The notes: generated by a model not told the origin, from the sequence alone. Counted from the first letter of the stretch, positions 1-18,131 are shown. The stretch is 64,000 bases of DNA from a virus (IMGVR_UViG_3300025921_000002:1-64000), one strand, 5' to 3'. Translations and numbers: made by a program.

Positions 1-175
1 GCCGGAGTTCCAGTTGCCGGAGTTCCTGTCGCCGGAGTTCCTGTAGCCGGAGTTACTGTCGCCGGAGTTCCAGTTGCCGGAGTTCCAGTTGCCGGAGTTC
101 CAGTTGCCGGAGTTCCAGTTGCCGGAGTTCCTGTAGCCGGAGTTCCAGTTGCCGGAGTTACTGTTGCCGGAGTTC
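1..175. repeat. 15-bp tandem repeat (gccggagtt[c/a]c[a/t]gt[t/c/a]), about 11.5 copies, coding on the - strand
   Basis: Directly visible; 15-nt period equals a 5-aa repeat. Confidence 0.97.
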
Positions 176-501
176 TTTAAACCAGTATTATCTTTACCAC
201 TATTAACAATCCCCAAAACCTCAATCCATGACAATTCACGTATCAATTCTATTTTATAGGTGCAGTGCTTATCACCATCTATTATAGGTGTTCCATGGTC
301 GATTATTTCAAACACCCGATTTTTTGAATCGAATGAATAATAACCGAAACAATCTGCGGCAATGGGGCAGTAGTGAAACCCACGTTCACATATTTCTATA
401 GAACCTTTATGGGTGTAAACTTTGTTTAGCTCATATTGAAATGAGCGGCAATTCATGTTTTCATCGGTTACCTTGTAACCTTTTTTAATTTGATTTTCCA
501 T
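1..501 (-). CDS. Phage pentapeptide-repeat protein, truncated at the left window edge (missing from the ORF track)
   Basis: ATG at 501; reads MENQIKKGYKVTDENMNCRSFQYELNKVY...ICERGFHYC...IELIRELSW, then (N/D/Y)(W/R/S)NSG repeats to the edge with no stop. The N-terminal GYK..CR.FQY..C..GFH.C pattern is typical of this phage family. Confidence 0.85.
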   Translation of the reverse strand, partial: MENQIKKGYKVTDENMNCRSFQYELNKVYTHKGSIEICERGFHYCPIAADCFGYYSFDSKNRVFEIIDHGTPIIDGDKHCTYKIELIRELSWIEVLGIVNSGKDNTGLKNSGNSNSGNWNSGYRNSGNWNSGNWNSGNWNSGNWNSGDSNSGYRNSGDRNSGNWNSG

Positions 502-531
502 TGTTTTGAAAGCTTTTAATTTTGTATGGAA

Positions 532-618
532 CAAATGTATAAAATAGTTTTTAAATACGCAACAATTATTTTTTAATAATTTTTAATTTGCAATTATCAT
601 TTATACTTTTTACCTTTA
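532..618. promoter_or_regulatory. Divergent Bacteroidota-type promoters
   Basis: -7 boxes TACATTTG (-, 532-539) and TACCTTTA (+, 611-618) in an AT-rich gap between divergent ORFs. Confidence 0.6.
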
Positions 619-671
619 CAGTCGTTAACCGGAGCAATAGTTCCTATACTTATTTTAAAAACCTAAAAAAG

Positions 672-965
672 ATGATGACAACAACTTACGGGGGCAACCC
701 ACGGTACTTGCACGAACTACCTGACGGAACATTTTTCGGTAGCCCGTTTGAATCGTTTTTACAGCTGGAATTAAATCAGCTATATCACGAAAAGCTACAG
801 CGATATAGTTCGGCTTTCATCGGCCCCGATTATATTAGGCTTACGGTCGGCGGTAGCGTGGATGAAGTTGTGGCTTCCATTCGGAATATAGTAGGTTCGG
901 ATTATATTGTACACGGAAGCAAGTATGGTTTCAATAAAAATATAACAATAAAAGTTAAGCCATGA
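672..965 (+). CDS. Hypothetical protein (probable start 672)
   Basis: ORF with A-rich leader before ATG 672; overlaps the next ORF by 4 nt. Confidence 0.6.
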   Translation: MMTTTYGGNPRYLHELPDGTFFGSPFESFLQLELNQLYHEKLQRYSSAFIGPDYIRLTVGGSVDEVVASIRNIVGSDYIVHGSKYGFNKNITIKVKP

Positions 966-1967
966 GTAATTTAATAACACAAGCCGCAGATAAAGCCATT
1001 GAGGACTTTAAATACCGTGAAGCATTCGCATTTATAGTCGGTTATATAACCGCTGGCAAGAATTTGGATCAGCCATTAAGCCCTAAAATGTTATTTCAGC
1101 GGGTTTATGACCATTACGGCATTGCACCGATACCTTCTATCTGCGAAGAACTCGGTTTAATTATTAAAGAGCCTAACGACACTAAAAAGTAAAAACCATG
1201 AACGCAAAACCACAAACATTAACCGTAGTCACTCCCAAAGAAAAGCCGACCGGGAAAAAGACAATGAAACAACTGACAGGCAGAAGATATGTTAAGCCTG
1301 TTTTAAACCCACCCGTATTTGGCGAGGAACTGGTTGACTTCAAAGTTAAAGGACTTTTTTGGATGGGTGTTAAACTTTATGAAAGATAAACCACTACATT
1401 ATTGGTTACCACCTCGTATTATAAAGCTAATAAAAGCAGGCAACGTGCGGGTGTATAAGTCGTTGAAGGAATTTAAAGAACGTAACAATGGTGAAGAAAA
1501 CCGATGCGAGAGATAAAATACTCTTTAAACATTATACGTATCGCGGCGGCGCTGAATATGTTGATATTATTACGGCAATGGAGGAATACGCAAACTATAA
1601 AATAAAACCCCTTTTAAAGCGAATAGAAAAATTAAAACAAAATGGCAAAATCAACTAACTGGACACTTTCAGATGCTAACAAAAAATAGAAAAAATGGAT
1701 AATTGGAGTAAAGGTGACGTAAAGTTTAACTTAGGTAAAAAGCCTATTTCGTTCAGTATTTATAATAATCTCCCGAATGTTCCGGGGCTAAGATTAGAAG
1801 ATGCTGTAACTAACTGGCTTGCCCGCACAGACGAATATACGGATGAATCCCTGTGTGCCTATATAATGAGCAAAGATATTAACCTGCGGGCTTATACGGC
1901 TTCTCAATTTGCTAATATACTTTTAGAAATAATGAAAGAAGAAAAACTTGAAGAAGATGGACAATAG
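962..1967 (+). other. Run of small hypothetical genes (962-1192, 1198-1389, ~1379-1516, 1488-1658, 1695-1967)
   Basis: Tightly packed or overlapping short ORFs typical of a phage operon. Confidence 0.6.
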
Positions 1968-2502
1968 CGAATTATCAGCATGGGCTAAAAAAGGCTATGT
2001 TGAATCTAATGGTAAACTTGTACGGGCTTCATCACTGGTAGTTAAAAATGTGAGTAAGTTGCCGGATTTAATGGCTGAATTTGGTGATACTACCTCTAAG
2101 ATTTCAGTTAATAAGAAAGTCCGTAATGCAACTAAGGTTGAAGCCGATGGGGTGAAGTTTGATAGCCGTCTTGAAAAGACCATGTACGACCTTTTAAAAG
2201 GCGCAGGGATTGAGTTTGAATTTCAAAAGGTCTATACCCTTCAAGAAAAGTTCCGTTATGGTACAGAGGCTATTAGGGCTATAACGTGCCGCGTAGATTT
2301 TTACATACCTTCAAAAACGCTGCTTATAGATACAAAGGGCTATGCGAACGATGTTTCACCTATAAAATACAAGATGCTTAAAAATCTATTGTATGAGCAG
2401 TTTGAGGCCGGATATTATAACCTTTTGCCAAATATCGAAATGCCAAAGAACATCAAAGATTGCGAGGCGCTAATCAATAAACTAAAGTACTCAAATATTT
2501 GA
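1948..2502 (+). CDS. DUF1064-like PD-(D/E)xK endonuclease
   Basis: K.RNATKVEADGVKFDSRLE, FQKVYTLQEKF, VDFYIP and IDTKG motifs. Confidence 0.75.
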   Translation: MKKMDNSELSAWAKKGYVESNGKLVRASSLVVKNVSKLPDLMAEFGDTTSKISVNKKVRNATKVEADGVKFDSRLEKTMYDLLKGAGIEFEFQKVYTLQEKFRYGTEAIRAITCRVDFYIPSKTLLIDTKGYANDVSPIKYKMLKNLLYEQFEAGYYNLLPNIEMPKNIKDCEALINKLKYSNI

Positions 2503-2532
2503 TAATAAGCAACTAAAATCGTAACTTATAAC

Positions 2533-2748
2533 GTGAATAGATGTAAAATAATGGACGTAATTGAAGTAAGCGCCCTGTGTGTCACATTCCAAAAACGAAT
2601 ACTTCAATACGGTGGCAGACAAGCAACTTTAGAAGCGATAGAACAAGAGCAACAAACTAAATATGAACCACCAAAACCAAAGTTTATATGGCCTCAAACA
2701 AAATATGGCCGAGCAAAAGCAAGGATGACTTACTTAAAAAACCTATAA
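2533..2748 (+). CDS. Hypothetical protein
   Basis: ORF within the operon. Confidence 0.5.
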   Translation: MNRCKIMDVIEVSALCVTFQKRILQYGGRQATLEAIEQEQQTKYEPPKPKFIWPQTKYGRAKARMTYLKNL

Positions 2749-2751
2749 ATT

Positions 2752-3375
2752 ATGAACACACCAAATTTAGCCAAGGCAGTAATAGCTGTAATGACCGCCG
2801 TAAAGGGGATAGAAAAATCCATGACGGTAGGAACGGGCAATAATTCCTACAAGGGTATTGCCGATAAAGACGTTAAACAGGACATAGGAAAGGCGATGCA
2901 AGCAAACGGCCTGTGCATTCTTCCCATTGGCGTAGAAGCTAAAACGCAAATTGACCGATGGGAAGAAAGTTATAACGGTCAGGCAAAGCAAAAGCAATCG
3001 GTATTAACCGAAGTGGTAACCAAATACCTGCTATTACACGAAAGCGGGGAAAGCATTGAACTGGCGGGTTACGGACACGGCATTGACAGCCAAGACAAAG
3101 CCGCAGGCAAGGCAACAACCTACGCCCTTAAATACACGTTGCTTTACACCTTTATGGTTGCTACGGGTAAGATAGACGACACGGATAACGAGCATTCAGA
3201 TACTAAGGATGTACCAAAGCCATTACCGGGATTATTGCCGGGGACAGACGCATGGGCCAAAGCTGTGGTTTACCTGTCCAAAGACGGAAATGTGGGTGAG
3301 ATAAAGAAGAAATACTATATCGCACCTGACCACGAACAAAAGTTAATGAATGAATCACTTTTAGCAATTCAATAA
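2752..3375 (+). CDS. erf: ERF-family ssDNA-annealing recombinase
   Basis: DSQDKAAGKATTYALKYTLL..F..ATG..DDTD matches the ERF signature G..TYA.(R/K)Y.L...F......D.D. Confidence 0.85.
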   Translation: MNTPNLAKAVIAVMTAVKGIEKSMTVGTGNNSYKGIADKDVKQDIGKAMQANGLCILPIGVEAKTQIDRWEESYNGQAKQKQSVLTEVVTKYLLLHESGESIELAGYGHGIDSQDKAAGKATTYALKYTLLYTFMVATGKIDDTDNEHSDTKDVPKPLPGLLPGTDAWAKAVVYLSKDGNVGEIKKKYYIAPDHEQKLMNESLLAIQ

Positions 3376-3376
3376 C

Positions 3377-3904
3377 ATGAGCGCATCAAAACAGGGATTT
3401 CAGGAAATACGGCAAAGTGCCGGGGATGAAAGAGATTATTTACCCGCTCCGCAGGCGTTACAGAACGGTATCGTAACCCTAAAAACAATAGGGGGTGATG
3501 GTATAGACGAGTTAGCTAAAGAGTTCGTGGCGCGTTATACGGACGGGAATCACAGCCCCGCAGAGGGGTTGGCTTTAGCTAAGAAGTTAGGCGACTTTGT
3601 GGAGTTGGTAAAGGCTAACATTTCAGATAACGCCACTAATGAACTAAAGTTAGGAAAAGGCGAAAAAGCTACGGTAGCCGGAATGGTTGTTAGTGAGCAA
3701 ATGGCAGGCGTTCGCTATGACTACACGGTTTGTAAGGACGTTTTATGGGACAAGTACAATAAGCTGAAAGGTGAACGTGAGGAGTTCTTAAAAACGGTCA
3801 AAGGACAGGTTATAACAGGCGACCCTGAAACAGGGGAAACATGGATGGCACATGAACCGTCTAAATCGGGTAAAATGACTTTGATATTTAAATATCCGAA
3901 GTAA
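3377..3904 (+). CDS. Phage hypothetical protein in the recombination module
   Basis: 175-aa ORF directly after erf. Confidence 0.7.
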   Translation: MSASKQGFQEIRQSAGDERDYLPAPQALQNGIVTLKTIGGDGIDELAKEFVARYTDGNHSPAEGLALAKKLGDFVELVKANISDNATNELKLGKGEKATVAGMVVSEQMAGVRYDYTVCKDVLWDKYNKLKGEREEFLKTVKGQVITGDPETGETWMAHEPSKSGKMTLIFKYPK

Positions 3905-4353
3905 TGCCAGTTAGAAATTACGATGCCATTATCGAAAACGGTACTTACAATTTCGTACACAAAACTTATGTGCTACGGGATATAGCAGAATCCTTTGAAG
4001 ATAAAGACAAAGTAACCATAACGATTAAAAGCCGAAGGAAGCCCCGGAGCTTAAAGCAGAACGCCTACATGCACATGTGTATGCAGATGATAGCGGACGA
4101 AACAGGTAATAGCTTAGAGCGCGTAAAAAGCACGTTAAAAGCGATGTACGCTAAAAAACCTTTACTGGATAAAGAAGGTGAGCAAATATTTGACCCGACA
4201 ACGGGCGAAGCAGTATTTTATATTCAGAACACGTCTGATTTTAGTACGATTGAGGCTTTTGAGTTTACCGAGAATGTCAGAATGTTCGCACAGGATTTTT
4301 GCAACCTTTACGTACCGTTACCTGATGAAAATATTGAACTGCCTTTGAAATGA
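3904..4353 (+). CDS. NinB/Orf-like recombination accessory protein
   Basis: KPRSLKQNAYMH...IADETG...TSDFSTIEAFEF..V..FA....Y.PLP pattern. Confidence 0.7.
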   Translation: MPVRNYDAIIENGTYNFVHKTYVLRDIAESFEDKDKVTITIKSRRKPRSLKQNAYMHMCMQMIADETGNSLERVKSTLKAMYAKKPLLDKEGEQIFDPTTGEAVFYIQNTSDFSTIEAFEFTENVRMFAQDFCNLYVPLPDENIELPLK

Positions 4354-4387
4354 CAGTTTTAAAAACAATTAGTTACGACCCTAAACT

Positions 4388-4848
4388 ATGATTTACGCTA
4401 TTATAAAGTTCTCACAGCCATTTAACCCACAGGTGGTAAAAGATATTTGCTTAGAATATAATATAGTGGCTATGGTAATGAATTTAAAAGAAAATGAATG
4501 GTGTTTAGAGACGGAGGATGCCGCTAACTTCTTTTGGTTCGGGTATGACTATCAGAAAAAGTTTTCAGACTGGTACAGGAATAACTCAATGGTGGTGCTG
4601 GACTTTAAAAGTAAGCAGTTTGGCAGTGAAAAGAAACGTTACGCTAAAAGAAAATGAACTTGCCTGACCATATAATTAAAAAGAATGACAAGTGGTATTT
4701 AAATACTAAAACGTCAAAGTACATTTCGGCTGATTACATCGAAACGTGGCTTGAAAATTATTGGAAATACCACAGTTCAGATAATGTTAAACCGAGATTA
4801 AGTTACGAAAAAAATATCAAATTAGCAAAGAAAAGATGGGATATATAG
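4388..4848 (+). other. Two small hypothetical genes (4388-4657, 4654-4848)
   Basis: ATGA-overlapping ORFs. Confidence 0.55.
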
Positions 4849-4852
4849 GGCT

Positions 4853-4911
4853 AAAAAAAGGAAAAGCCCCATCGGGGTGACGGAGCCTGAATCCTATTAT
4901 GGACGTATGCT
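4853..4911 (-). ncRNA. Putative ~60-nt antisense sRNA
   Basis: Consensus promoter TTTG(4946-4943)-N19-TACTTTTG(4923-4916). The transcript AGCAUACGUCC... ends in a GGCUCCGUC/GAUGGGGCU hairpin followed by U-runs. Confidence 0.6.
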
Positions 4912-4964
4912 GTAACAAAAGTAACAAAAAATTTGCCAAAGTCAAAACTATTTTTTAAATTAGC

Positions 4965-5300
4965 ATGTCGGTTGTATTCATTGTACCGACAGGACGTATG
5001 CTAAAGTCCGCACAAAAACAATAGTCGAAAGTCACGTTACAGCATAAATAGTCCCGCACTGACTTACAAGGTGTCAACGGGCGAACTGATGGGCACGACC
5101 GAGAGCTGTAAATGGTCAATCTAATAGGAGGTACGGGTTACCACCAAAGGGTATTGAAATAAGAAAACGACAAGTAGGCACGAATGGTGAAGGCAAAAAA
5201 TAAAAAAGTTATTTTGATTAAACCATTAAACTCATTGAAAGGAATAAGGTGTTCCCCACCCCTATCAGGAGTATAGACCTTGCTTTGACTAATGATTAAA
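4965..5300 (+). ncRNA. Putative structured leader or ncRNA
   Basis: ORF-free on +. Promoter TTTG(4932)-N20-TAAATTAG(4956). Hairpins tgtcggt/accgaca and ggac-gtatgctaaa-gtcc. Confidence 0.45.
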
Positions 5301-5345
5301 ATATTAATTTTAAATAGCAATCTATTCACTAAACTTTAAAACAAA

Positions 5346-5576
5346 ATGAACTGGATAAAAGCCACAGACCCGGACACATCGCCACCGCAGAATGATAATT
5401 ACGATTGCTCAACTTATAAAGTTCCTGTTATATACCTGACATCTCAAGGGTATAGGGATATTAGCTGTGCATGGGCAGATGTGCAAGACGGTGATATACT
5501 TTGGTTTTGCGATGCTAAAAATTGTGACAGGGTTTTATTTTGGTTAGACAACGTACCTGAATGGGATAAATTATGA
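5346..5576 (+). CDS. Small protein, DUF551-like
   Basis: MNWIK.....PP N-terminus and V.FW...P C-terminus. Confidence 0.45.
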   Translation: MNWIKATDPDTSPPQNDNYDCSTYKVPVIYLTSQGYRDISCAWADVQDGDILWFCDAKNCDRVLFWLDNVPEWDKL

Positions 5577-6013
5577 TGTATTGTCAACCAACCACCTTTA
5601 CAGGCTTACAGCCCTACTCTTTAAAGCCTAAGCCCTGCACTAAGTGCGAAGCTGTAATAAAGAGACGTGAACGCTTTAAAGCCAAACTAAAGCCATTTGT
5701 GGAAGTGTACGGGCGTGAAATGATGAATGCTTTTTACGCTTATTGGAGTGAGTTAAATAAAAGCGGTACAAAGATGCGTTGGGAACTGGAAAAGATTTGG
5801 CAGTTGAATTTAAGACTTTCGAGATGGGAGAAAAACCAAAAGTTTACAACCACACCTAAACAGCAGGCAGAGTTTTTAAACTACTACGATGCGAAGTTTG
5901 AAAAAAGTCTGACAGACGTAGATAAAATGAGATACACCCAATTTTTAATTAAATTAGGATGGATACAAAGAAAAACACATGAAGGCTCTTTTGCGGGCTG
6001 GATAAAACCTTAA
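5573..6013 (+). CDS. Protein resembling the C-terminal domain of Bacteroidota phage replication-initiation proteins
   Basis: YGREMMNAFYAYWSELNKSGTKMRWELEKIW....RL.RW motif; no N-terminal wHTH. Confidence 0.6.
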   Translation: MMYCQPTTFTGLQPYSLKPKPCTKCEAVIKRRERFKAKLKPFVEVYGREMMNAFYAYWSELNKSGTKMRWELEKIWQLNLRLSRWEKNQKFTTTPKQQAEFLNYYDAKFEKSLTDVDKMRYTQFLIKLGWIQRKTHEGSFAGWIKP

Positions 6014-6017
6014 TAAC

Positions 6018-6569
6018 ATGGATTTAGAAATAACCAAGCCGATACATAACGGTGATTACGTAGAAGATTTCCCGCATGAAAATGGCATGTATATGCACAT
6101 TTGTGTTAATTGTAAAGAGAAATTCTTAGGACATAAAAGACGAATTCATTGCAAGACGTGCGATTTAACCAACAGTCCAAGAGTAACATTTTCAGTACCG
6201 GAAATATATAGAGTAAAAACGGGTATCATGGCAAGTGACGAAAGTTACGGCTGTAATGGCGTTTTTATAATCCCAGTCAATTACGATGAACCCGGCGTGA
6301 AGTATTATCAATGCATAGTTTCGGATGGTATGGGTTGGCGACACGTGTCGGTTGTGATGGTTAATGAAAGGAAGGAATCATCAAACGTTTTGCCATCATG
6401 GGAAGATATGTGTTACCTTAAAGATTGTTTTTGGGATAAAGACCAATGCGTTGTTCAATATCACCCGCCAGAAACCGAGTACGTAAACAATCATAATTAC
6501 TGTCTGCATCTTTGGCAACCGACCGAATTTAAATTTCCAATGCCTGATAAAATAATGGTTGGCTTATGA
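6018..6569 (+). CDS. Conserved phage protein with N-terminal CxxC...CxxC zinc ribbon
   Basis: GWRHVSV...PSWEDMC..KD.FW.....VQYHP....YVNNH..CLHLW motif. Confidence 0.75.
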   Translation: MDLEITKPIHNGDYVEDFPHENGMYMHICVNCKEKFLGHKRRIHCKTCDLTNSPRVTFSVPEIYRVKTGIMASDESYGCNGVFIIPVNYDEPGVKYYQCIVSDGMGWRHVSVVMVNERKESSNVLPSWEDMCYLKDCFWDKDQCVVQYHPPETEYVNNHNYCLHLWQPTEFKFPMPDKIMVGL

Positions 6570-6810
6570 AGCAAATATGTTAAACCGTAACCCAACACCC
6601 GAAACAAAAGAACCTATGTGGAACACAGACAAAATACAAGCCTACTTTAAAAGAGAATTACCTAACGAAATACAACTCGATAGTGTTACCAAAATAACTA
6701 ATGTAAGGCGGTTTGTGGATAGTCATATAGCAGTTTTAAGGAACAAAGAAACTAATCCTACCTATTTGCCCTATTATCACAGGCTCTTACAGCTAACCAA
6801 ATTGTTATGA
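6559..6810 (+). CDS. Hypothetical protein
   Basis: ORF within the operon. Confidence 0.6.
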   Translation: MAYEANMLNRNPTPETKEPMWNTDKIQAYFKRELPNEIQLDSVTKITNVRRFVDSHIAVLRNKETNPTYLPYYHRLLQLTKLL

Positions 6811-7091
6811 GATGGTATAATTACATCATTTCCCGCGATCTAAAAGCATTCCATACAGGCTATTGCAAAGACATTATAAAAGCCATAAAGATGCACAAGG
6901 ACTTTCCGGGTATGGTATGGCCGCCACGTCCAAATCTATTAATTCATTTGGAAGCAAGTGCCACCGAAGATGAAGCGCGATGCAGATTAGAAGAAATAAT
7001 AAGTTTAACCCACGCCCAAAAGATAAAACTGGTAGAAACGAACAACCCGGACTTTTTAGAGTTGCAGCCCGGTGTAAACATAATCCTTTAA
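6807..7091 (+). CDS. Degenerate small GIY-YIG (UPF0213/YhbQ-like) protein
   Basis: YNYII...HTGY.KD..KA...H, L.HLE....DEA and K..LVE..NP.F.EL spacing; catalytic Arg apparently lost. Confidence 0.55.
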   Translation: MRWYNYIISRDLKAFHTGYCKDIIKAIKMHKDFPGMVWPPRPNLLIHLEASATEDEARCRLEEIISLTHAQKIKLVETNNPDFLELQPGVNIIL

Positions 7092-7102
7092 AAATCACAA
7101 TT

Positions 7103-7450
7103 ATGACCACAGAGTACTTTGTCGGTTTACCGATAGCAACGCAAAAGGTTTTTTTAAACGATGAGGCAGAGCCAAAAAAGGAAAGGATAACCCAAAAGAT
7201 TTTCGATAATTTTAAAGTTGATATTCTGTTAAAGGATAGTTCAATACGAACAAGGGATGCGGTTCTTGCGCGTCAAGTATCTATGTACTTCGTTAAGAAG
7301 CGCACAGCCTTATCATTAAAGCAAATAGGTGCTTATTTTGGCGGTCGTGACCACAGTACAGTTATTTATGCCATTGAGACCGTAAACGATCTTTATGACA
7401 CTAACAAAGGCTTTAGAACTCGCATTGACGAATTAAATATGGTGGTATGA
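7103..7450 (+). CDS. Stand-alone DnaA domain IV (C-terminal HTH) protein
   Basis: R.R..V.ARQVSMYF....T.LSLKQIG.YFGGRDHSTVIYA is the DnaA_C signature. Confidence 0.9.
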   Translation: MTTEYFVGLPIATQKVFLNDEAEPKKERITQKIFDNFKVDILLKDSSIRTRDAVLARQVSMYFVKKRTALSLKQIGAYFGGRDHSTVIYAIETVNDLYDTNKGFRTRIDELNMVV

Positions 7451-8025
7451 AATTAAAGGCCGGGACTGAATTTACGCGGAATGGAAAGCCCGTGTGGGTT
7501 GAACATGATTTACAGAATGGCTTTGTTAACGTTTGTGACGCCATTACAAGGCTACCAAGCGACAATTACGAAGTGGTTGGTATAGATACACTGTTCCCAA
7601 AAAATAATGGCTCTACGGGCAGGAAATTCGGCAGTACGTTTTTAAGAACTAGGCTAACACCCGAAAAGAAAAGCGAGAAAGAAGAAATGAGAGCTTTTTT
7701 TAAAAGCCTCGAAGTTCCTTTCAATTGTGCCGAATGTGGTAAGCCTTTATATGCTTATGGAGAGTTTGCTAAACGATGTGTTTCAGCACACATTTTGCCA
7801 AAAAATAGTTTTGAAAGTGTTAAAACGTGTGCGGATAATATCGTATATTTAGGTTGTGATTTGGTTGCAGGTGTATGTGATTGTCATACTTTTTACGATT
7901 ATTCCGTAGAGAACAGGATAAAGATGAAAATTTACCCGGCGATAGTTGAACGTTTTGAAACTAAACTTAAACACCTTTTGACCGATAAGGAATTAGTAGA
8001 CGCATTAGATTATTTAGGATTATGA
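7447..8025 (+). CDS. NinG/HNH-like zinc-binding nuclease
   Basis: CAECG...SAHILPK...NIVYL...CH..YD. Confidence 0.55.
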   Translation: MKLKAGTEFTRNGKPVWVEHDLQNGFVNVCDAITRLPSDNYEVVGIDTLFPKNNGSTGRKFGSTFLRTRLTPEKKSEKEEMRAFFKSLEVPFNCAECGKPLYAYGEFAKRCVSAHILPKNSFESVKTCADNIVYLGCDLVAGVCDCHTFYDYSVENRIKMKIYPAIVERFETKLKHLLTDKELVDALDYLGL

Positions 8026-8219
8026 AAATAGAACCTATAAGCACCGAGCTAAATCAGCAGTTGGTTGATTTACAAAGCGTGTACCGGGAAGAACTAAACA
8101 AAATGGGTATCCCTGAAAATTTAGAGGGTAAGATAACTAATCAGGTTGTTTCTACTAATGAAACAAGCAAGCATATTTATGAGGCTTATTTAAGCAGACT
8201 TAAAGCATTCTTGCGTTAG
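8022..8219 (+). CDS. Hypothetical protein
   Basis: Last ORF of the + operon. Confidence 0.5.
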   Translation: MKIEPISTELNQQLVDLQSVYREELNKMGIPENLEGKITNQVVSTNETSKHIYEAYLSRLKAFLR

Positions 8220-8292
8220 CGATTGAAGCGGCATCCTTTGCTTCTATCAGTAAAGATATAGCGGAAAGCGCGACCCGATAGGGTAACGCCCA
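8212..8292 (+). ncRNA. Flavo-1-like structured RNA / Bacteroidota intergenic repeat
   Basis: gcgttagcgattgaagcggcatccttt...aaagatatagcggaaagcgcgacccgatagggtaacgccc closely matches the Flavo-1 consensus as I recall it. Confidence 0.7.
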
Positions 8293-8743
8293 AAAATAAG
8301 AAAAGGCGGCTATTTCTAACCACCTTCAATTTAAGGCACCAAAGCTCAATTATAGGACACTTTCATTTCAAATGGTACTTAGATACCACTAACAAGATAA
8401 ACGTTAACTGATACGCTTATTAGATGCCTTCCTGAACAAATTAGTAAGGTCAAGTAATTCCTTAGACCAATTAACATTAATAAAAAGATAAGCAGCAGAT
8501 ACAATGAGTACCATACCGATAGTAAACTGTAAAAAGTTCATGCTGTAGCCTCCTCTAATAACCAGTCAATAATATAAACCAAGCGGTTTGATGGTTGATA
8601 ATCTGCATCAAAATCCTCTGTTTCGTCGAGGTGGAGGTCAATTTTTTCCCTAAACTCTTGTAAGAGCATTTTTAAATCGTGTGTCATTTGTTTTTAGGTT
8701 TTTAATTGTGTATATTTACGTTAGTTAAAATCGTTCATTGAAA

Positions 8744-9330
8744 TTAGATAGGGAATATGGTATAATTTGGTGTCCATTCTCCGCATAGGTCGCAGAGTAT
8801 TTTAGCAGCTTTAATCATTGTTTCGGCTGTATACTCTTTGTCGCCAGTCATTTCCAATAGTTCAAATGCTGCTCTATTTTGCTGCATAACTTCACTAACA
8901 ATTAAGTTAGCCAGTTTTACGGGATGACCTTCACTTTGCATGAAAAGCCATTTTTGATAAGCGGTTGCTTTCATCTTTTAAGCCCCCTGTAAAAATCCTG
9001 CTTCTCAGCATCGTTCATTAAAATGGTTTCAGGGTGGAATTCTTTATAAAAGTCGTCTGACTCTTTTTGAATATCATACAGAGCTTTAGCGTTTTTCATC
9101 CAAAAGTTTTGGTATGCTTCATCGGCTGTAACAAGTAAGAGATTGCCGCAATATTCGTTTATGTAGTTTTCGCAATCCTCGAAATCTTTCGGGAACATAG
9201 GTATATCCTCAATCTCGGTTGCCCCTGTTAATTCGTTTTCGTTATAGATTTTTTGTGTAAACTCTATAAATTGCTCGTCCGTGTCGAATTCCCATTTAAC
9301 GCCGTCGATGTTTTCTACTGTGGTTTTCAT
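8744..9330 (-). other. Two small early proteins (8744-8974, 8971-9330)
   Basis: Coupled ORFs with A-rich leaders; the second is very acidic. Confidence 0.65.
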
Positions 9331-9417
9331 GTTAATTTATTTGATTTTAAAGGTTTATTTGTCTATATTTATACAAAGTAAAATAACTGTTTTTGCTTTA
9401 GTTCTTTGACGTGTTAG

Positions 9418-9960
9418 TTAAGCCGTTTGTAATGTTTCAAATTCAATCAATTCGTCGATATAATCAATCAATTCGGCAGACCTGAAACATTCAGCCACTT
9501 TTAATTCAAGCTGTGTAAATTCGCAGTTGTTATAATCCCGGTCAGCTATTAAGCCGATGAAATATCCTTTAAGGAGGGACAAATCATTGGAAATACTTAT
9601 ATCTACAATCTCGGATGGTTTAATGTCCCTGTAGATGCATTTTGCGCCCGTGTACTGCATGTTTTCGCAAGAGCAATCGTCACACACCTGTTCGTCATCC
9701 AATTCAATTTTAAGGACTATAACGCGGCAATCTTTAGCTATTGCACAAGCAATTTGACCGCTTTCATTAGCCATTCTAAATGCCTCTTGTTCGTACTGGT
9801 CTTCATCTAAACAATTAGCTTCTCCGCATCCTTTAGGCTCCCAAAGATAAATAGCATCTTCCGAGCAGTTCCACAGCTTATTTTCGCTGCAAGACAGGCC
9901 ATATTTTAAAATTGATTGCAGGTTATCTGCGCTTGTTCCGTGGTAATAAGTAGTTTTCAT
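9418..9960 (-). CDS. ADP-ribosyltransferase-fold protein
   Basis: YYHGTS..NL.SIL..GL, AIYL, VIVLKI and I.P..I motifs. Confidence 0.65.
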   Translation of the reverse strand: MKTTYYHGTSADNLQSILKYGLSCSENKLWNCSEDAIYLWEPKGCGEANCLDEDQYEQEAFRMANESGQIACAIAKDCRVIVLKIELDDEQVCDDCSCENMQYTGAKCIYRDIKPSEIVDISISNDLSLLKGYFIGLIADRDYNNCEFTQLELKVAECFRSAELIDYIDELIEFETLQTA

Positions 9961-10048
9961 GTTATTTTATTTAAGGTTTTTAAAGTGTGTTTAGCGCCCT
10001 ATTCTATGCATGACATAATGTAGTTTTCTTTTTATAGGGCTGTGAGAG

Positions 10049-10375
10049 TTAAATATAGTGATATAAAGGATGTTGATATAAAACGCGTTTACCTTTTGAT
10101 TCGGTTATTTTAACTATACAATGGTCTAACATTGCGCCGCCGCCGTAACTACGTTTATTATACACAAGCAAGGGGATTTTAATGCTGCCAGTTGAGCGAC
10201 CAACATAACCCGTAACATAGTGCATTTCATTCCAGTCACGCCCTGTTGACGTGTCGCCGTAATGTACGCGGATACGATAATTGTTTAAACGGGCATTTTC
10301 AAGTACATTGATAACATTTTGACGGGTTTCCAAGTGGTAAAAAGTCCCGTTAATTGATTGATATTGTTTTTCCAT
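10049..10375 (-). CDS. Conserved phage early protein
   Basis: RIRVHYGD..TGRDW.E....G.VGRSTG..KIPLL..N.RS.GG.A.LDHCIVKI motif. Confidence 0.75.
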   Translation of the reverse strand: MEKQYQSINGTFYHLETRQNVINVLENARLNNYRIRVHYGDTSTGRDWNEMHYVTGYVGRSTGSIKIPLLVYNKRSYGGGAMLDHCIVKITESKGKRVLYQHPLYHYI

Positions 10376-10431
10376 GTTTTACACCTGCTTATTTTAATCC
10401 GTTCAGGTTACGGGCTTTAAAAGGTTTTTAG

Positions 10432-10476
10432 AGACTGTATCAGGAATCGAACACTGATTAAGAACCATTACAGCCT
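10432..10476 (-). ncRNA. tRNA-like minihelix element
   Basis: 7-bp stem aggctgt/acagtct, TGG-containing linker and T-arm with G-TTCGATT-C; no anticodon arm. Confidence 0.5.
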
Positions 10477-10698
10477 GTAGGAGTTAGTTGATCGGCTCTA
10501 TTCTTACATAAGTGCCGAGAAATAGTAATTCTGCTTTTAATCTTTGTGCTTCATTTAAAGTAAGGGGAACTAAATTTATTTTTTTGCTTTGGTGAATTAA
10601 GTTAAAAGTTTCCATAATTTTTAAGTTTTTAAGAACCGGGTGCAATCACGAATTGCCTGTTTTCTATAACCCGATTGATTTTCTCTTAATTGAGACAC

Positions 10699-10710
10699 TT
10701 CAAAGAACAA
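10699..10710 (-). promoter_or_regulatory. boxA-like antitermination element
   Basis: TTGTTCTTTGAA downstream of several hairpins in the early transcript. Confidence 0.4.
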
Positions 10711-10790
10711 AACCATCACGGCTCTTACCGCCAATTGCCCAACTAATTTAATAGTATGGGCTGGCAGACTGCTAAAGACTTAGCAGAACT

Positions 10791-11281
10791 TTAGAGTATT
10801 TTAATTAAATCTTCTCTTGTTTTATATAATCTAACTTCGCTATATGTACCACCACCACAAGCCGAGCCGTAAGAAGCTAACTCATATTCGATATTGATAA
10901 AGGATGCGCTTGCTAATATTCTGATATATGCAATTTTCCCGCGTGTTATTCTGTTATTATTCATAAAATAAACCACATCGCCTATTTTAAATTTGTTGTT
11001 TACTTTCATGGTTAATAGCAGATTAGTGTGTTAATATCGTGGTTAAGCAGGGTACAAAAACCCCTGCTATCAACTGTGTAATAAATCTTTTTATATTGTG
11101 GCTTTCCGGCTACTATTTTAATAGCTTCGTAGTAATATTTGCCGTCTGCATCTTCATAACCCGGCTTGCCTGAATTAAGCCATTTAAGGTCGCTTAATTT
11201 ATAGATGCAATTGGTTGGAACTGCTGAATCGTAGTAAAGACCTGTTTTAAAGTCAAATACTAAAGTTGTTTCTGTTGTCAT
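10791..11281 (-). other. Two small early genes (10791-11009; 11012-~11281)
   Basis: ORFs downstream of the -7 box TATACTTG (11340-11333). Confidence 0.6.
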
Positions 11282-11473
11282 TTTGCTAAGTTTTTTAGTT
11301 TTACTGTTTCCGTCGAACCGTTTCGACAATGCAAGTATACATACTATTTTTCATTTGTCAATACTAATTATGATTTATTTTATATAATCTTATCAAATAA
11401 AAGCTAAGTGACTGAAAATCAACCTAATTCTTTTTCATTTGCAAGTGTGAAATATTGTACTTATATTTGCAGT

Positions 11474-11689
11474 ATGCAAGCAAGGGATATAACCAGTAAA
11501 CTAAAGACGCGGCGCAAAGAGCTAAAACTCACCTTGCAAGATGTTGCTGACCTTACGGGTGAAACCAAACAGTATATAAATATCATTGAAAACGGCGCAA
11601 ACACCAAATTAGATAAGCTAATCAAACTGGCGAAGGCTTTAAACCTCACTGTTACACTATCAGAAAACATAACCTACAAACCCGATTGA
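11474..11689 (+). CDS. XRE/Cro-type HTH regulator, probably leaderless (start 11474)
   Basis: LKTRRKELKLTLQDVADLTG..KQYI..IENG...L.KLAKAL; TATATTTG lies 4 nt before the ATG. Confidence 0.85.
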   Translation: MQARDITSKLKTRRKELKLTLQDVADLTGETKQYINIIENGANTKLDKLIKLAKALNLTVTLSENITYKPD

Positions 11690-12182
11690 AGCCTAATAAA
11701 CCCCTAATAACAAAGAGGAAAGCACTCCTTACTAAGTAATACACCCTAAATAAAGACCTACAGCCAACCAGAGGTAAAAAGCATACTAACTGTCAACCAA
11801 CTACCAAAACCCCCTTAAATCGCCTAAAACACCCCAAAAACAACAAAATAAGACAATACCAGCTAAGGCAATAAGCTACACCAGTAAACAAAGTTTAGTA
11901 TTTGTAAACAATCAAGTGAGTTTATTATATATAGTGCTGTAATAAGGCAATTGTTAGTTACTCATGGCTGTGGTTGACTGATTAAACAGCTTTTTTGAGT
12001 GGTGATGTTATAAGAGAGGCTGAATAAATCCATTTTATTAATGGTAATGCGTTAATAAGGACTAATTTGATAGCTTTATTCAACGGTAATAATCCCTTTT
12101 ACAAAGAAACAAACACAAAATAACAACCCCAAAGCCTAAAACAATAGTATAACTTCACACAACAACATACTACATTTGTAAA

Positions 12183-12365
12183 ATGAGGCACATTTATGTT
12201 ATAATAGACTTAGATAGTAATGATTTACACGCGTATACGCGACTAACCAGCTTAACAAAGAAGCATAAGCTAAACACCCAAACGATCAGGAATCACTACT
12301 GTAAGCATCGTACGAACAAGTACAGCAATGGACTGGTAACAGTCATCAAACTCCCTTTGCGATAG
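12183..12365 (+). CDS. Small basic HTH-like protein, probably leaderless
   Basis: TACATTTG-4 nt-ATG. Confidence 0.55.
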   Translation: MRHIYVIIDLDSNDLHAYTRLTSLTKKHKLNTQTIRNHYCKHRTNKYSNGLVTVIKLPLR

Positions 12366-12762
12366 GGTAGGAGGGAAGGTTTAGTAAGGCTAAACAAAGT
12401 TTAATTAACGTAATGTTTATTATCATACGTAATAAGCTGTTACAACCCATAACCAAAAGGTTATAATGAACACCCAACATTCACCTTTTCAAAAGGACAC
12501 CAGACAATAGCTTTTTAGCTTTCAACTTTTATAAAGTTTTGTTGAGGGGTGTACCCATTGACCCCCCGGGGATGTTCCCAAAAGGTGTTGATGGGGTGGG
12601 AATAGGGGGTGGGTACTCTATACAGAGACGTACACCTTTTCTACAAAAGCACCCCCATGCCTTTTATTAAAGTACCCATATAAAAAAGAGTATATAAGAT
12701 AAGAAGGGGCTTATAAAATAGTATTGTGTATCAATGATTTAACGATTTGTCCATACCACAAC

Positions 12763-12798
12763 GTTGGTAAATACACCGCGATTGTTGGTATATACACC
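12763..12798. repeat. Two 15-bp direct repeats (gttggta[a/t]atacacc), 21-bp period
   Basis: Copies at 12763-12777 and 12784-12798. Confidence 0.75.
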
Positions 12799-12862
12799 AA
12801 AGTCGTTGCATTATTTTTGAAATAAAGTTGCATTTTAAATACAATAGTTTTATCTTTACGGC

Positions 12863-13324
12863 ATGGCTACAAAGCATTTCTTAGAGAGTAAAACAATAAG
12901 CCGTGTAGACCCGGAAACGGGAGAAATAGTTGAGACCGAAGTCAAAAAGCTGGTTAAGGTTAATATGGGCAAGCAGGAGGAATTTTACATGACCTACTGT
13001 AGTTATTTGAGTTCTCTTTATGAATTGACCTATGCCGACGATATAAAGCTCATGGTTAAGTTATGTGAGTGGGGTGAGTTCGATACTGGGGATGTTCAAT
13101 TGACAAGCGCGAGAAGGCAGGAGATAACTGATACGATGGGTATGCACAACTCAAACATCTCGAAGTCTATTAAGAGGTTAAAGGAAAAGAATTTAATTGC
13201 GGGGGACAAGGGAGCGTTTAAAATAAACCCGGTTATCTTTTGGAAAGGCGATAGAGCCGTAAGAAAAGATATTTTGAAAAAGGACGGATTGAGCGTAATG
13301 TTTAACTTTCAGGTTGGGGAATGA
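12863..13324 (+). CDS. RepL-like winged-helix replication/regulatory protein
   Basis: VDPETGEI N-terminus; RQEITDTMG....ISKSIKRL.EKNLI....G.FKINP..FWKG. Confidence 0.7.
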   Translation: MATKHFLESKTISRVDPETGEIVETEVKKLVKVNMGKQEEFYMTYCSYLSSLYELTYADDIKLMVKLCEWGEFDTGDVQLTSARRQEITDTMGMHNSNISKSIKRLKEKNLIAGDKGAFKINPVIFWKGDRAVRKDILKKDGLSVMFNFQVGE

Positions 13325-13584
13325 TTTTAGTAAAGGTAAAACGCTCGGCTCATGGTAAATCGGCATATGCGGAGTATAAAGATGTTGGTTATTCGCTACG
13401 GGTGTACATTTATCATAACAAGCCATGTACGAAAGAATATGGCGAATGGTTTTTAGTTTGCCACCAAACGGAGAAGGGCGAAAGGGAACAAAGAATTGTT
13501 TTTGATAATTATTTAGATTTTAGGAACTTTAGGTCGGAAAAAGATATTGAACTTAATTATGATGAAAAAGCATCCGGGGTTTAA
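13321..13584 (+). CDS. Hypothetical protein
   Basis: ATGA overlap with the upstream gene. Confidence 0.5.
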   Translation: MILVKVKRSAHGKSAYAEYKDVGYSLRVYIYHNKPCTKEYGEWFLVCHQTEKGEREQRIVFDNYLDFRNFRSEKDIELNYDEKASGV

Positions 13585-13714
13585 AGCCGTAGCGGCATCA
13601 ATCTCAAAGAAAAAAGGGGTTAGTAAAAAGAGTGCTGATGCTATTTTAGCGAGTGCATCCCGTAAAAACAAAAAGACAAGTTCTAACCCACGTTTAAAAA
13701 AAGTAAAGGGATGA
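13559..13714 (+). CDS. 51-aa Lys-rich small phage protein (not in the ORF track)
   Basis: MMKKHPGFKAVAASISKKKGVSKKSADAILASASRKNKKTSSNPRLKKVKG; resembles a recurrent phage HPGFKAV...NPRLK.VKG family. Confidence 0.75.
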   Translation: MMKKHPGFKAVAASISKKKGVSKKSADAILASASRKNKKTSSNPRLKKVKG

Positions 13715-14236
13715 TTGAATTAGAAGTTAACGGTCGGAAGTTATTTTTTGATGATGTTCAGGCAAGACAACAACAAGATTGGTTAGATAAGCGTGAAAAT
13801 CATGTGATGTGGGTAATGTCAGGCGGATTATTAGGCAAGAGGGACGAATCAGAACCTGTACAACAATGGCAAAGAACGAACTAATCATAGACCTTACTCA
13901 AGCAAAGACCTCGCTGACTTTTGTTGAGGGCGACCGTCCTGTACACGGCGTTACCCTAAACACCCTTGACGTAGAACAAGCTATTACCGACTGGATAACC
14001 GAGAACACAGAGTGGGCTAAGTTTTTTGAAGGAACACCTATATGACCTTTAGAGAAATAGAGAACGGCTTTAAAGACCAACTGACCGAGTGTAACGTGAA
14101 CGAAACGTTCTATTTGTTACACCACACCGCCCGTCAGTCTAACCATAAACATCTGAACTTCGTACAGACAGAAGAACTGCTTGACCTTTTTATGAAAGTC
14201 TGGAAGGAAATAAAAAAAGGCCACCCAACGGGATAG
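13711..14236 (+). other. Three small hypothetical genes (13711-13884, 13866-14045, 14042-14236)
   Basis: Chained overlapping ORFs. Confidence 0.55.
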
Positions 14237-14248
14237 CCTAATTTCACC

Positions 14249-14500
14249 TTACGAACCGCTAACAAGTGTAGATACAGACTCATTTACAAGGTACACATGG
14301 CTAATGCCTGAATTATTTTCAAAGTCATTAGTGTGAACGGCTGTGTTAATGCCCTGTGAAGCTGCCGGGTAACCGTGCTTTTGGTTTGTAGTAGCCGCCA
14401 CTGCGAACTTGATCTGGTCGCCGGGGATAGCATACGTTGCTGATGGGGACAGGTTTGTGCTGTCTTTGGTGAATACGCTCACCGAAATAAGTTGTGCCAT
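14249..14500 (-). CDS. Small Ser/Thr/Ala-rich protein, possible virion decoration protein
   Basis: Structural-type composition; own promoter (TACATTTA at ~14554-14547). Confidence 0.5.
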   Translation of the reverse strand: MAQLISVSVFTKDSTNLSPSATYAIPGDQIKFAVAATTNQKHGYPAASQGINTAVHTNDFENNSGISHVYLVNESVSTLVSGS

Positions 14501-14585
14501 TTGGAATCGTTAAAAGAAGTCTTAAAAATTAATCGTTAATTACTTGTAAATGTAATTATTATTTGCTTATGTCAAGTACTCTTTT

Positions 14586-14710
14586 TACCTTTACTGACAG
14601 CAGAGTAATTTAGAATGAAACAAGAAATCAAAAACTTCCCGGCAGACCGTCATTCGTTAGTAGATTACTCTGCGGTAAACTCGTCGTTTGTGTCTGACCG
14701 GGTTTTTTAA
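14586..14710 (+). promoter_or_regulatory. Promoter plus structured leader/attenuator with a 31-aa leader ORF (14615-14710)
   Basis: -7 box TACCTTTA; helix gcagagtaat/attactctgc; helix cccggcagac/gtctgaccggg followed by T6. Confidence 0.55.
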
Positions 14711-14720
14711 TTTAAACGCT

Positions 14721-15101
14721 ATGAAATATACAGACGGAGTTGATTTAAAGGACCTGAAAAACATTTTAGCAGGAATGGGCATTCCATATAGCCCTGAAAG
14801 TTCAGCAATAGCCCAAAAGGCAATTAAAGAACATCCCGATGAAGAAGTAGCAGGCGCTATAATGCGATATACTAACTTATTTGAAACCATACCCGGAATT
14901 AAAAGAGAAATGGAAGAAACAGAAGAACAACTACCCTTTAAAGGAATATGCCTTTCAATGGTATTGGATGCCCGTATGCAGGCACTTGACTTAGCCAGAG
15001 AGTTAAACCAAGAAGGGGTTAACCTAAAAACAGCAGGTCAGGCAGAGATTTTGAGGGATGCAGAACAGATTTTTGGTTGGATGCTTAAAGATTTGCAGTA
15101 A
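14721..15101 (+). CDS. Hypothetical protein (probable start 14721)
   Basis: First gene after the structured leader. Confidence 0.6.
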   Translation: MKYTDGVDLKDLKNILAGMGIPYSPESSAIAQKAIKEHPDEEVAGAIMRYTNLFETIPGIKREMEETEEQLPFKGICLSMVLDARMQALDLARELNQEGVNLKTAGQAEILRDAEQIFGWMLKDLQ

Positions 15102-15871
15102 TGGCGCTGATTGTAATTTGCTGTTATGATACCGAAGAAAACGGGCGTTATGAATACACGGATGCAACATTGCGTTCACTTCAAAGAACAGTTGATTGGT
15201 CGAAACACAGATTGATAGTTGTTGATAATGGAAGTGATGAATCGTGCCGAGGAATAATCTTTAGGGGTGTAACGGCGATTGGAGCGAAATTAATTACACT
15301 TCCTGAAAATGTTGGAACAAGTAAAGGGCTGAACGAGGGTATGCGTCTAAGAAAAGAACATGAACACGTTTTGAAAGCAGACAACGATGTCGAATGGCTA
15401 TATCCTAATTGGCTTGATGAGTTAGAAGAAGCAATTGAGCGAGACCCGACAATTGGAATATTAGGTCTTAAACGCAAAGACCTTATCCAAAACCCATATC
15501 ATGAAAGCGAGCAATACCGAAGTGAATATAGGATGCTGCCACATGAACCGGGTCAGCGCTGGATAACCGTAGAAGCCACGGCAGATATTATGGGTACTTG
15601 TACTTTATTCAACTATCGATTAATTGACAAAATAGGAGGTAGCGCACAACCGAAATTATACGGCCTTGAAGATTGTCTCTATTGCCTTCGTTCGCATTTA
15701 GCAGGTTTTTATAATGCTTTCCTTCCTCACATTGAAATAAATCACCTTGACAGGGGAGATAACCCATACGTGCAGGTAAAACAAAGGCAGGCTGGCGAAG
15801 CATGGCCTATCTATCATGAATGGCACAAAGGATATATTGAAGGGACAAGACCATTATACGAAGAAATATGA
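15101..15871 (+). CDS. GT2-family (GT-A) glycosyltransferase
   Basis: LIVVDNGS, N.G.SKGLNEG, DND (DxD) and YGLED..YC.R...AG motifs. Confidence 0.9.
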   Translation: MALIVICCYDTEENGRYEYTDATLRSLQRTVDWSKHRLIVVDNGSDESCRGIIFRGVTAIGAKLITLPENVGTSKGLNEGMRLRKEHEHVLKADNDVEWLYPNWLDELEEAIERDPTIGILGLKRKDLIQNPYHESEQYRSEYRMLPHEPGQRWITVEATADIMGTCTLFNYRLIDKIGGSAQPKLYGLEDCLYCLRSHLAGFYNAFLPHIEINHLDRGDNPYVQVKQRQAGEAWPIYHEWHKGYIEGTRPLYEEI

Positions 15872-16473
15872 TTTTAGGAGACAGCGCAGAGTATGAATAC
15901 CTTTCAGAAGCGGTAGCTTTAAGCAAAGATGTTGAGGGGATGTGCATAGAAATTGGTGTCCGGCGCGGTCTTGGTACTAAGACCATTATCGACGCTGTAA
16001 GGCAATATTGCCCACACAAAACCGTGGTTGCCGTAGACCCATACGGTTCAATACCATACGTTGGGCAAGAGCATATCGGTGAAATAAGGCTGGATTACGA
16101 TAATCCTATGAAGTTTGATTGCATGGTTGATTTATGGAATTATGTTCGTGAAAATCCTGTTAATTTCAGGCCGGAATGCCTTACTGATTATGAGTTTTTT
16201 GATAAGTACCATGACGGTGTACCGAAGTACGACATAGATATTGCAATAGAAAAACTGTATAGTATGGCGCATTTGGATGGGCCTCATAATTTTGAACACG
16301 TAAGTACAGAAATTGAATGGTTTAATCTACGAATGAACGGCGGTTCGGTAATTGTAATTGATGATGTGAGTCCAGAGTATATTGATATTAAGCCAGTAAA
16401 TGAACTGCTTGATTTTTTGGGATGGGATTTGGTAAAAGAAGGTAACAAGAAAAATCTTTATGTTAAACGGTAA
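15868..16473 (+). CDS. Class I SAM-dependent methyltransferase (Methyltransf_24/TylF-like)
   Basis: IEIGVRRG, VAVDPY, AHLDGPH and GSVIVIDD. Confidence 0.85.
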   Translation: MILGDSAEYEYLSEAVALSKDVEGMCIEIGVRRGLGTKTIIDAVRQYCPHKTVVAVDPYGSIPYVGQEHIGEIRLDYDNPMKFDCMVDLWNYVRENPVNFRPECLTDYEFFDKYHDGVPKYDIDIAIEKLYSMAHLDGPHNFEHVSTEIEWFNLRMNGGSVIVIDDVSPEYIDIKPVNELLDFLGWDLVKEGNKKNLYVKR

Positions 16474-17976: not shown

Positions 17977-18131
17977 AACGTTTTTTAATAAGTTTTTCTT
18001 ATGCTCTATTATTCGCAATTTTAGCCGTAATTCTATTTAAAAGATTCGATATGGGTCAATTTTTAATGGGATGGATGTCTTGTGTTGTTTTTTATACCGC
18101 GTATTCTGTAACTAAAGAGATTTTAGCATGA
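17973..18131 (+). CDS. 52-aa two-TM membrane protein (not in the ORF track)
   Basis: MKRFLISFSYALLFAILAVILFKRFDMGQFLMGWMSCVVFYTAYSVTKEILA; ATGA overlaps on both sides. Confidence 0.65.
   Translation: MKRFLISFSYALLFAILAVILFKRFDMGQFLMGWMSCVVFYTAYSVTKEILA

Follow-up and report, generated by a model that had tools for sequence, protein, structure and literature searches.

A gap of 497 nt in the virus genome IMGVR_UViG_3300025921_000002, between the genes at 4654-4848 and 5346-5576, probably encodes a pair of regulatory RNAs: a terminated small RNA of about 59 nt made from the minus strand and a divergently transcribed, structured leader on the plus strand, on which the small RNA would act through an 11-nt seed. 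The window that was analyzed comprises the first 64 kb of a 74,996-bp IMG/VR record that CheckV rates as complete. The gap itself (4849-5345) contains no open reading frame (ORF) of at least 40 amino acids (aa), in keeping with an earlier model-made reading of the sequence (the original prediction), which had described an ORF-free stretch ahead of the downstream genes and had proposed that an antisense small RNA and a switchable structured RNA are produced there from overlapping divergent promoters. Two results of a comparison with the related phage L023 carry the case: the predicted seed and target sites have been kept complementary, and the plus-strand RNA has a conserved fold.

Seed and target sites kept complementary in two phages

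The features that make up the small RNA, its promoter, the opposing promoter and the target hairpin are as follows.

4853-4911, minus strand: predicted small RNA gene of about 59 nt, with the 5' seed AGCAUACGUCC, an A/U-rich linker, a terminator hairpin and a U-tail
4864-4888, minus strand: intrinsic terminator stem-loop of 10 pairs, with its U-tract at 4863-4853
4901-4911, plus strand: first copy of the 11-mer, the DNA encoding the small RNA seed, ending at the predicted start 4911
4916-4946, minus strand: promoter P(-), with TTTG at -33 (4946-4943), a 19-nt spacer and the -7 box TACTTTTG (4923-4916), an exact consensus
4931-4963, plus strand: promoter P(+), with TTTG at -33 (4931-4934), a 21-nt spacer and the -7 box TAAATTAG (4956-4963)
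4992-5009, plus strand: target hairpin P2, GGAC-(10-nt loop)-GUCC, present in predicted folds

The 11-mer GGACGTATGCT that the original prediction had singled out does occur at 4901-4911 and 4992-5002, and these are its only exact copies in the 74,996-bp genome. The second copy, at +25 to +35 of the leader and directly 3' of the leader's first hairpin (P1), supplies the 5' arm and seven loop bases of P2. In the predicted small RNA the first 16 nt are unpaired and are followed by a 10-bp hairpin (z = -2.7), and opening of nt 1 to 11 costs 0.2 kcal/mol. The seed/target duplex is worth -17.9 kcal/mol; with 4.3 to 5.7 kcal/mol needed to open the target, the net energy is about -12 to -13 kcal/mol, and cofolding of the two RNAs gives a gain of -11.6 kcal/mol.

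Taken alone, the single features of this arrangement are compatible with chance, and the sequence of one phage could not decide the matter. There are 14 exact direct 11-mer pairs at most 200 nt apart in the genome versus approximately 5.5 per shuffled genome, with inverted pairs expected about equally often, and a direct pair that overlaps an 11-nt inverted repeat, as at 4906-4916/5036-5046, arises in 17 of 668 shuffles. It is the comparison with L023 that places the arrangement above chance.

The L023 locus is part of a 42.5-kb IMG/VR record, about 55% complete, that was reached through an alignment of the 64-aa protein encoded upstream of the gap. The whole gap has a homologue there, with 73% identity over 301 nt and 71% in a second segment (76% in another comparison). 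The covariation statistics draw on this single comparison, the other homologues being near-identical strains. Both 11-mers of L023 read GGAACTATGCA (3235-3245 and 3329-3339, 94 bp apart), so that relative to the present phage the seed and the target have changed at positions 4, 5 and 11, identically in both copies; its record has only these two sites within one mismatch of the 11-mer. At about 25% divergence, independent identity of the second copy at all 11 positions is estimated at ~0.75^8 x (0.083)^3 = ~6e-5. The first copy of L023 also ends exactly at the predicted start, 3245. The cognate duplexes of the two phages have energies of -20.3 and -18.6 kcal/mol, compared with -10.2 and -11.4 kcal/mol for the cross pairs between this phage and L023. 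The hairpin P2 is itself compensated, with GGAA-loop-UUCC in L023 in place of GGAC/GUCC, so that position 4 of the 11-mer has two covarying partners, one in the seed and one in the hairpin arm. Covariation in relatives, which had been put forward as a check along with the original prediction, was therefore observed in L023, where seed, target and hairpin arm change together.

Both copies would also be expected to change in concert were the 11-mers the DNA binding sites of a single sequence-specific phage protein that regulates the divergent promoters and whose specificity had shifted. The repeats do flank divergent promoters, with the first copy at +1 to +11 of P(-), and five same-strand AWAGTC motifs cluster at 4938-5053. 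This explanation is nevertheless unlikely. Perfect identity at 11 of 11 positions in both lineages exceeds what such sites usually need, and the C-to-A change in the second copy is matched by a G-to-U change in the hairpin arm, which only the fold of a single strand explains. In addition, the start site coincides in each phage with the last base of the first copy, the second copy lies at +25 to +35, an odd position for an operator, the AWAGTC cluster and an inverted third copy are not conserved in L023, and no candidate binding protein accompanies the module.

A strain variant from a soil metagenome (X6, 97% identical, covering 4499-5066) is consistent with the RNA seed-and-target reading. The gap differences listed for it (4851, 4913, 4950, 4951 and 4995) include none in the small RNA body at 4853-4911, in the promoter boxes or in P1, and the contig has three further differences beyond those listed. 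C4995T, in the second copy, is the sole listed change in a pairing element, and it retains pairing as G.U. DNA near-identical to the phage is also present in rhizosphere metagenomes.

The minus-strand promoter of the original prediction, TTTG-N19-TACTTTTG, was found again at 4946-4916. Exact matches to TTTG-N17-23-TAnnTTTG number five on both strands of the genome, P(-) among them, and about four are expected by chance from an estimate based on base composition. The sigma-A box TAnnTTTG of Flavobacterium psychrophilum spans -12 to -5 (PMC9723704), and application of this spacing places the start of P(-) at 4911, the final base of the first 11-mer copy. P(+) is predicted to start at 4967/4968, at the foot of the 6-bp hairpin at 4967-4990. 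The two starts lie 56 to 57 bp apart, with interleaved -33 regions and overlapping upstream halves. This overlapping, divergent pair is conserved in L023, where both promoters keep their -7 and -33 boxes with changes at free positions only: the aligned P(-) reads TTTG-N20-TAGTTTTG, in which the -7 box differs at the free "nn" positions, and the -7 box aligned to P(+) is a perfect TATATTTG. L022, one of three other relatives without the RNA module, retains a TTTG-spacer-TAAATTAG promoter after the homologous 64-aa gene.

Two other sites in the genome resemble these promoters. The promoter of a leftward gene block, TTTG-N20-TACTTTTGTT (genome 67547-67578, minus strand), has the extended -7 box TACTTTTGTT in common with P(-), and the shared box suggests a common strong promoter type in this phage. 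A plus-strand site at 7793-7814, inside the gene at 7447-8025, has a 15-nt exact inverted match (AAAAAATAGTTTTGA) to 4931-4956 and also shares TTTGCCAAA with it; it may be an internal promoter for 8022-8219.

The terminator of the small RNA ranks first among terminator-like sites in 1-20000 and follows 22 nt after the predicted start site. Its stem needs G.U pairs and is therefore specific to the minus strand, and as an "orphan" terminator amid plus-strand genes it argues by itself for a minus-strand transcript. The small RNA ends 5 nt past the stop codon of the upstream gene (stop at 4848). The homologous unit of L023 (3190-3245, minus strand) is 56 nt long (z = -2.5) and has the same layout, with a free 5' end and a terminator hairpin of 12 bp that differs in sequence, the stem having been kept through changed bases. 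The layout originally predicted, a terminated minus-strand RNA of about 60 nt whose 5' end is complementary to the second 11-mer, is thus conserved between the two phages.

A conserved fold in the plus-strand leader

The leader and the elements found in it are listed below.

4967-5345, plus strand: whole proposed leader, from the P(+) start to the next start codon at 5346
4967-4990, plus strand: P1, a 6-bp hairpin at the leader 5' end, in which the closing G-C pair is A-U in L023
5036-5054, plus strand: inverted partial copy, the "mimic" of the original prediction, lineage specific
5046-5093, plus strand: 48-nt core, identical at 48 of 48 positions in this phage and L023
5086-5268, plus strand: P4, a long-range helix of 8 pairs, CUGAUGGG (5086-5093) with CCCUAUCAG (5261-5268)
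5183-5227, plus strand: P6, a two-part hairpin, AAUGGU (5183-5188) with ACCAUU (5222-5227) plus an inner stem (z = -2.3)
5264-5284, plus strand: second invariant block, 21 nt, identical in both phages

The structured plus-strand RNA of the original prediction has a counterpart in L023, and the RNA at about 4967-5290 has a conserved fold. The RNAalifold consensus of 4967-5292 with L023 3302-3598 contains 50 pairs, of which 9 are compensatory, 6 are changed on one side and none is broken. When the 3' partners were slid by 1 to 3 columns, 0 to 3 compensatory pairs and 29 to 47% pairing remained, and none of 500 shuffles reached the observed values. Five of the compensatory double changes of L023 fall in P6 (AAUGAC/GUCAUU, and inner A-U pairs replaced by G-C). 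The core holds the hairpin P3 (5051-5056 with 5078-5082 and 5060-5063 with 5073-5076, loop 5064-5072) as well as the 5' arm of P4, a helix that closes a variable domain. One pair of P4 is G.U in this phage and G-C in L023; the minus-strand fold cannot form P4, and the plus strand is therefore favored. ACCUUG in the second invariant block (5277-5282) is complementary to CAAGGU in the P3 loop (5067-5072) and forms a candidate pseudoknot of -7.5 kcal/mol, the arms of which are invariant in both phages and hence carry no covariation signal. In a search of 4,227 Rfam models, the check suggested with the original prediction, the small RNA and the leader of both phages reached no family, with best E values of 1.1 to 6.8 and scores far below the gathering scores.

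P6 and P4 also bear on a further explanation, in which the locus is a type I toxin-antitoxin-like or leader-peptide cassette and the small RNA controls a 30-codon ORF at 5184-5276 whose AUG lies in P6. The layout matches that of divergent type I loci (PMC3919570), and in both phages an ORF of 30 to 32 codons ends at the same stop and has a similar C-terminal half. The encoded peptide, however, is basic rather than hydrophobic and has no family match; the ORFs of the two phages begin at nonhomologous start codons, and a 7-nt indel puts their N-terminal halves in different frames. Where codons are conserved, they fall on the 3' arms of P6 and P4, and the partners of these arms covary and are located outside the ORF. 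A cassette of this kind is distinctly unlikely, and the ORF (L023 3492-3590) is probably not a gene. ORFs on either strand of the gap, inspected for a hidden protein gene, were junk-like and unconserved, and a search of the gap for tRNA or tmRNA gave no match. An attP-like reading of a tRNA fragment in the core was also rejected, as no integrase was found.

Both the GGAC-loop-GUCC hairpin and the alternative helix with 5041-5054 that the original prediction had described appear in predicted folds of this phage. The switch built on the AGCAUA-AAUA-GUCC mimic did not survive the comparison: the inverted repeat (5036-5046, an 11-nt perfect inverted repeat of 4906-4916) and AGCAUA (5041-5046) are replaced by unrelated sequence in L023. 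A weaker pairing is available to both phages, between the 5' portion of the target (GGAC-G-UAU in this phage and GGA-A-CUAU in L023) and AUAGUCC, an invariant stretch on the 5' border of the core. This helix of 7 bp with one bulge (-5.2 and -4.0 kcal/mol) would compete with the base of P3, and a switch through it is possible.

The AWAGTC motifs around the start of the leader are striking in this phage, with five of the 40 plus-strand A[AT]AGTC motifs of the genome falling within 116 nt (4938-5053, plus strand); two of the three genome occurrences of AGTCC(C)GCAC lie in the same interval. As "iterons" they were rejected for want of conservation: only the last copy is kept in L023, and the cluster looks like a lineage-specific local duplication.

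Mechanism, function and known systems

In the proposed mechanism, P(-) would produce the RNA of about 59 nt from 4911 to 4853, with its unstructured 5' seed and its own terminator, while P(+) would produce a structured leader of about 320 nt continuing into the gene block that follows. Positions 1 to 11 of the small RNA would pair with P2, 25 to 35 nt from the leader 5' end, probably starting at the seven exposed loop bases and then invading the 5' arm of the stem. Pairing would lower or reprogram expression of the downstream block, either by destabilizing the leader or by refolding its 5' part against the core; by analogy, the effect is most likely repression. Firing of one promoter would hinder the other, and the small RNA would also be fully antisense to any RNA that reads through from the genes upstream. 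Most probably, the module would serve to time a delayed-early gene block in a lytic phage whose host is of Bacteroidota type.

Expression data give a weak hint that the leader is transcribed. Contigs from rhizosphere metatranscriptomes of two studies map within it (4987-5169 in run X5 and 5059-5320 in run X4), although they are unstranded and of low depth, with DNA carryover possible. No RNA contig of X4 or X5 lies over 4769-4986, which is uninformative on the small RNA because an RNA of about 59 nt is not expected to assemble.

Several observations weigh against the proposed regulatory pair. The module is missing from three other relatives that share the flanking genes (G001, G003 and G004) and is thus dispensable. 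A duplex of 11 bp is short, and for 48 of 68 shuffled seeds the genome offers a site just as good. Some 350 nt separate the target from the next start codon. Compensatory Watson-Crick changes are compatible with both strands, and the single-sequence fold energy of the 5' half of the leader is ordinary (plus-strand z of -0.6 for the whole gap and of -0.4 to +0.6 for its 5' and central parts). The RNA contigs are unstranded, and none covers 4853-4911.

The main target of the small RNA could instead lie elsewhere, with the leader hairpin as a decoy or as one of several targets. Outside the gene of the small RNA itself, the seed finds its best site in the genome at 68024-68037 (L016:4024-4037), a match of 14 bp that includes one G.U pair and lies inside a plus-strand gene (67608-68513) for a 301-aa protein of unknown function (phrog_10079). 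Its duplex energy of -25.9 kcal/mol is reached by 1 of 68 shuffled seeds, and the net energy is about -18 kcal/mol. The site is in the middle of a gene, however, and the concerted evolution that was observed concerns the site at 4992; the roughly 55% of the genome present in the L023 record has neither a homologue of the phrog_10079 gene nor a third seed match. As a replacement for the leader target it is improbable, but by its predicted pairing it may be a second one.

The original prediction had interpreted the locus as an RNA-only switch, either for superinfection immunity in the manner of P4 CI and P1 c4 or for RNA-primed replication in the manner of ColE1. As that reading had suspected, the phage has no DnaB-type helicase, Pol A or Prim-Pol; it encodes only a DnaA domain IV protein and must borrow the replication machinery of its host. 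Both functions are nonetheless highly improbable. No integrase or resolvase was found: searches of the CheckV-complete record with PF00589 and PF00239, which left other lysogeny functions outside their scope, gave no match, and with neither a tyrosine nor a serine recombinase found an immunity role is unlikely. With regard to priming, no DnaA boxes were found in the gap and there is no turn in GC skew, which also led to rejection of an origin of replication as a candidate. In relatives the module and the DnaA domain IV gene are not found together, this phage and L023 have different genes following the module, and the related phages that have the flanking genes without the module are hard to square with an origin. 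The small RNA, moreover, is not processed from its target transcript and has its own promoter on the other strand.

It is also conceivable, though doubtful, that the leader of about 320 nt represents a new class of cis-acting regulatory RNA, sensing a protein or ligand or acting in antitermination, that is gated by the small RNA through competition of AUAGUCC for the P2 strand and that forms a portable two-RNA switch placed before different gene blocks by phages of Bacteroidota-type hosts.

Short matched RNA elements define immunity in P1/P7 and P4. The proposed module resembles c4 and CI in having short matched elements in a phage regulatory leader, with covarying changes between relatives. 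The c4 and CI RNAs, however, are cut from the same strand as their target transcript and serve lysogenic immunity, whereas the small RNA described here is encoded on the opposite strand, with a promoter and a terminator of its own; unlike the c4/CI phages, this phage has no recognizable integrase, and neither processing from a shared transcript nor the PF00589 or PF00239 domain of a temperate element was found. A ColE1-like origin is likewise not matched, as the two RNAs do not overlap, the gap has no origin signature, and the module is absent in relatives that share its flanks.

OOP of lambda and Sar of P22 each overlap the gene that they target, in its coding sequence or its start region. 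They resemble the predicted small RNA in being terminated opposite-strand RNAs of about 60 to 77 nt inside an early gene block (OOP is described in PMC5869508). Unlike them, the small RNA at 4911-4853 does not overlap a target gene but ends 5 nt past the upstream stop, which lies at 4848, and the target that is conserved is a separate copy of 11 nt, found 91 bp away in a transcript that runs divergently.

The closest likeness in layout is to the tisB/istR-1, shoB/ohsC and zorO/orzO loci, in which the 5' end of a divergent small RNA matches 18 to 21 nt far upstream in a long structured 5' untranslated region (PMC3919570). As in those loci, the small RNA gene is divergent from and does not overlap its neighbor, and the match comes from a direct DNA repeat; specificity of OrzO versus OrzP depends on a few bases, as it would between this phage and L023, where the cognate duplexes are better than the cross pairs by approximately 8 to 10 kcal/mol. 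The module differs in that the adjacent small RNA pairs, perfectly, over 11 nt rather than 18 to 21 nt, that there is no conserved small hydrophobic toxin ORF, that the leader precedes ordinary phage genes, which are not the same in L023, and that the host type belongs to a group not known to have Hfq. Judged by the predicted ORFs, with the toxin ORF missing, the module falls outside the divergent type I toxin-antitoxin group.

Regulation by RNA is still little explored in Bacteroidota and in their phages, and to our knowledge Bacteroidota, the group of the presumed host, have neither Hfq nor ProQ. In the literature searched, no validated small RNA/target pair was found for a phage of this group. 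The locus supplies a compact candidate pair backed by covariation, with 3 of 11 positions different between its two natural versions and no cross-reaction expected, and it adds an uncatalogued structured leader of about 320 nt with an unusually invariant core. It also suggests that the divergent-promoter, duplicated-seed layout of enterobacterial type I loci can exist without a toxin.

Gene context and distribution

All genes from 588 to 8219 are on the plus strand, and this block includes Erf, a resolvase-like DUF1064 protein, NinB and a DnaA domain IV protein (6980-7450). The last of these had been predicted downstream of the gap and was confirmed; the "initiator C-terminal domain" gene predicted along with it was not found. 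About five gaps of the size of the 497-nt gap exist in the genome, the module gap among them. At the end of the rightward early gene block is a match to a known RNA family, faced by a leftward terminator at 8327-8302.

8208-8279, plus strand: Flavo-1 RNA (RF01705), 52.7 bits against a gathering score of 42

The Flavo-1 match, together with the Bacteroidota-style promoters, points to a Bacteroidota-type host.

Homologues of the module were sought widely. No useful relative was recovered from GenBank phages by blastn or from IMG/VR with single flanking proteins, with the paired 11-mers or with the hairpin plus its target. The center of the core retrieved from IMG/VR only the L023 record itself, the two invariant blocks had no match in GTDB genomes, and none of 13 distant loci reached through a 146-aa protein has a homologous gap. 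The downstream protein had one match in JGI metagenomes, on a sequence that begins within the gene and has no upstream DNA. In phage G001, a 74.7-kb relative, a gene for a 166-aa, weakly RepL-like protein with its own divergent promoter region (L017:2436-2936) replaces the RNA module ahead of a homologous 76-aa gene. With another gene in the place of the module, the early region appears to be strongly mosaic.

At either end (window 1-165 and genome 74800-74996), the record consists of the same 15-nt tandem repeat with the unit GCCGGAGTTCCAGTT and its variants. Since the two ends share this repeat, the linear record was cut within the array, and it therefore ends inside a repetitive, probably coding array and not at a true genome end.

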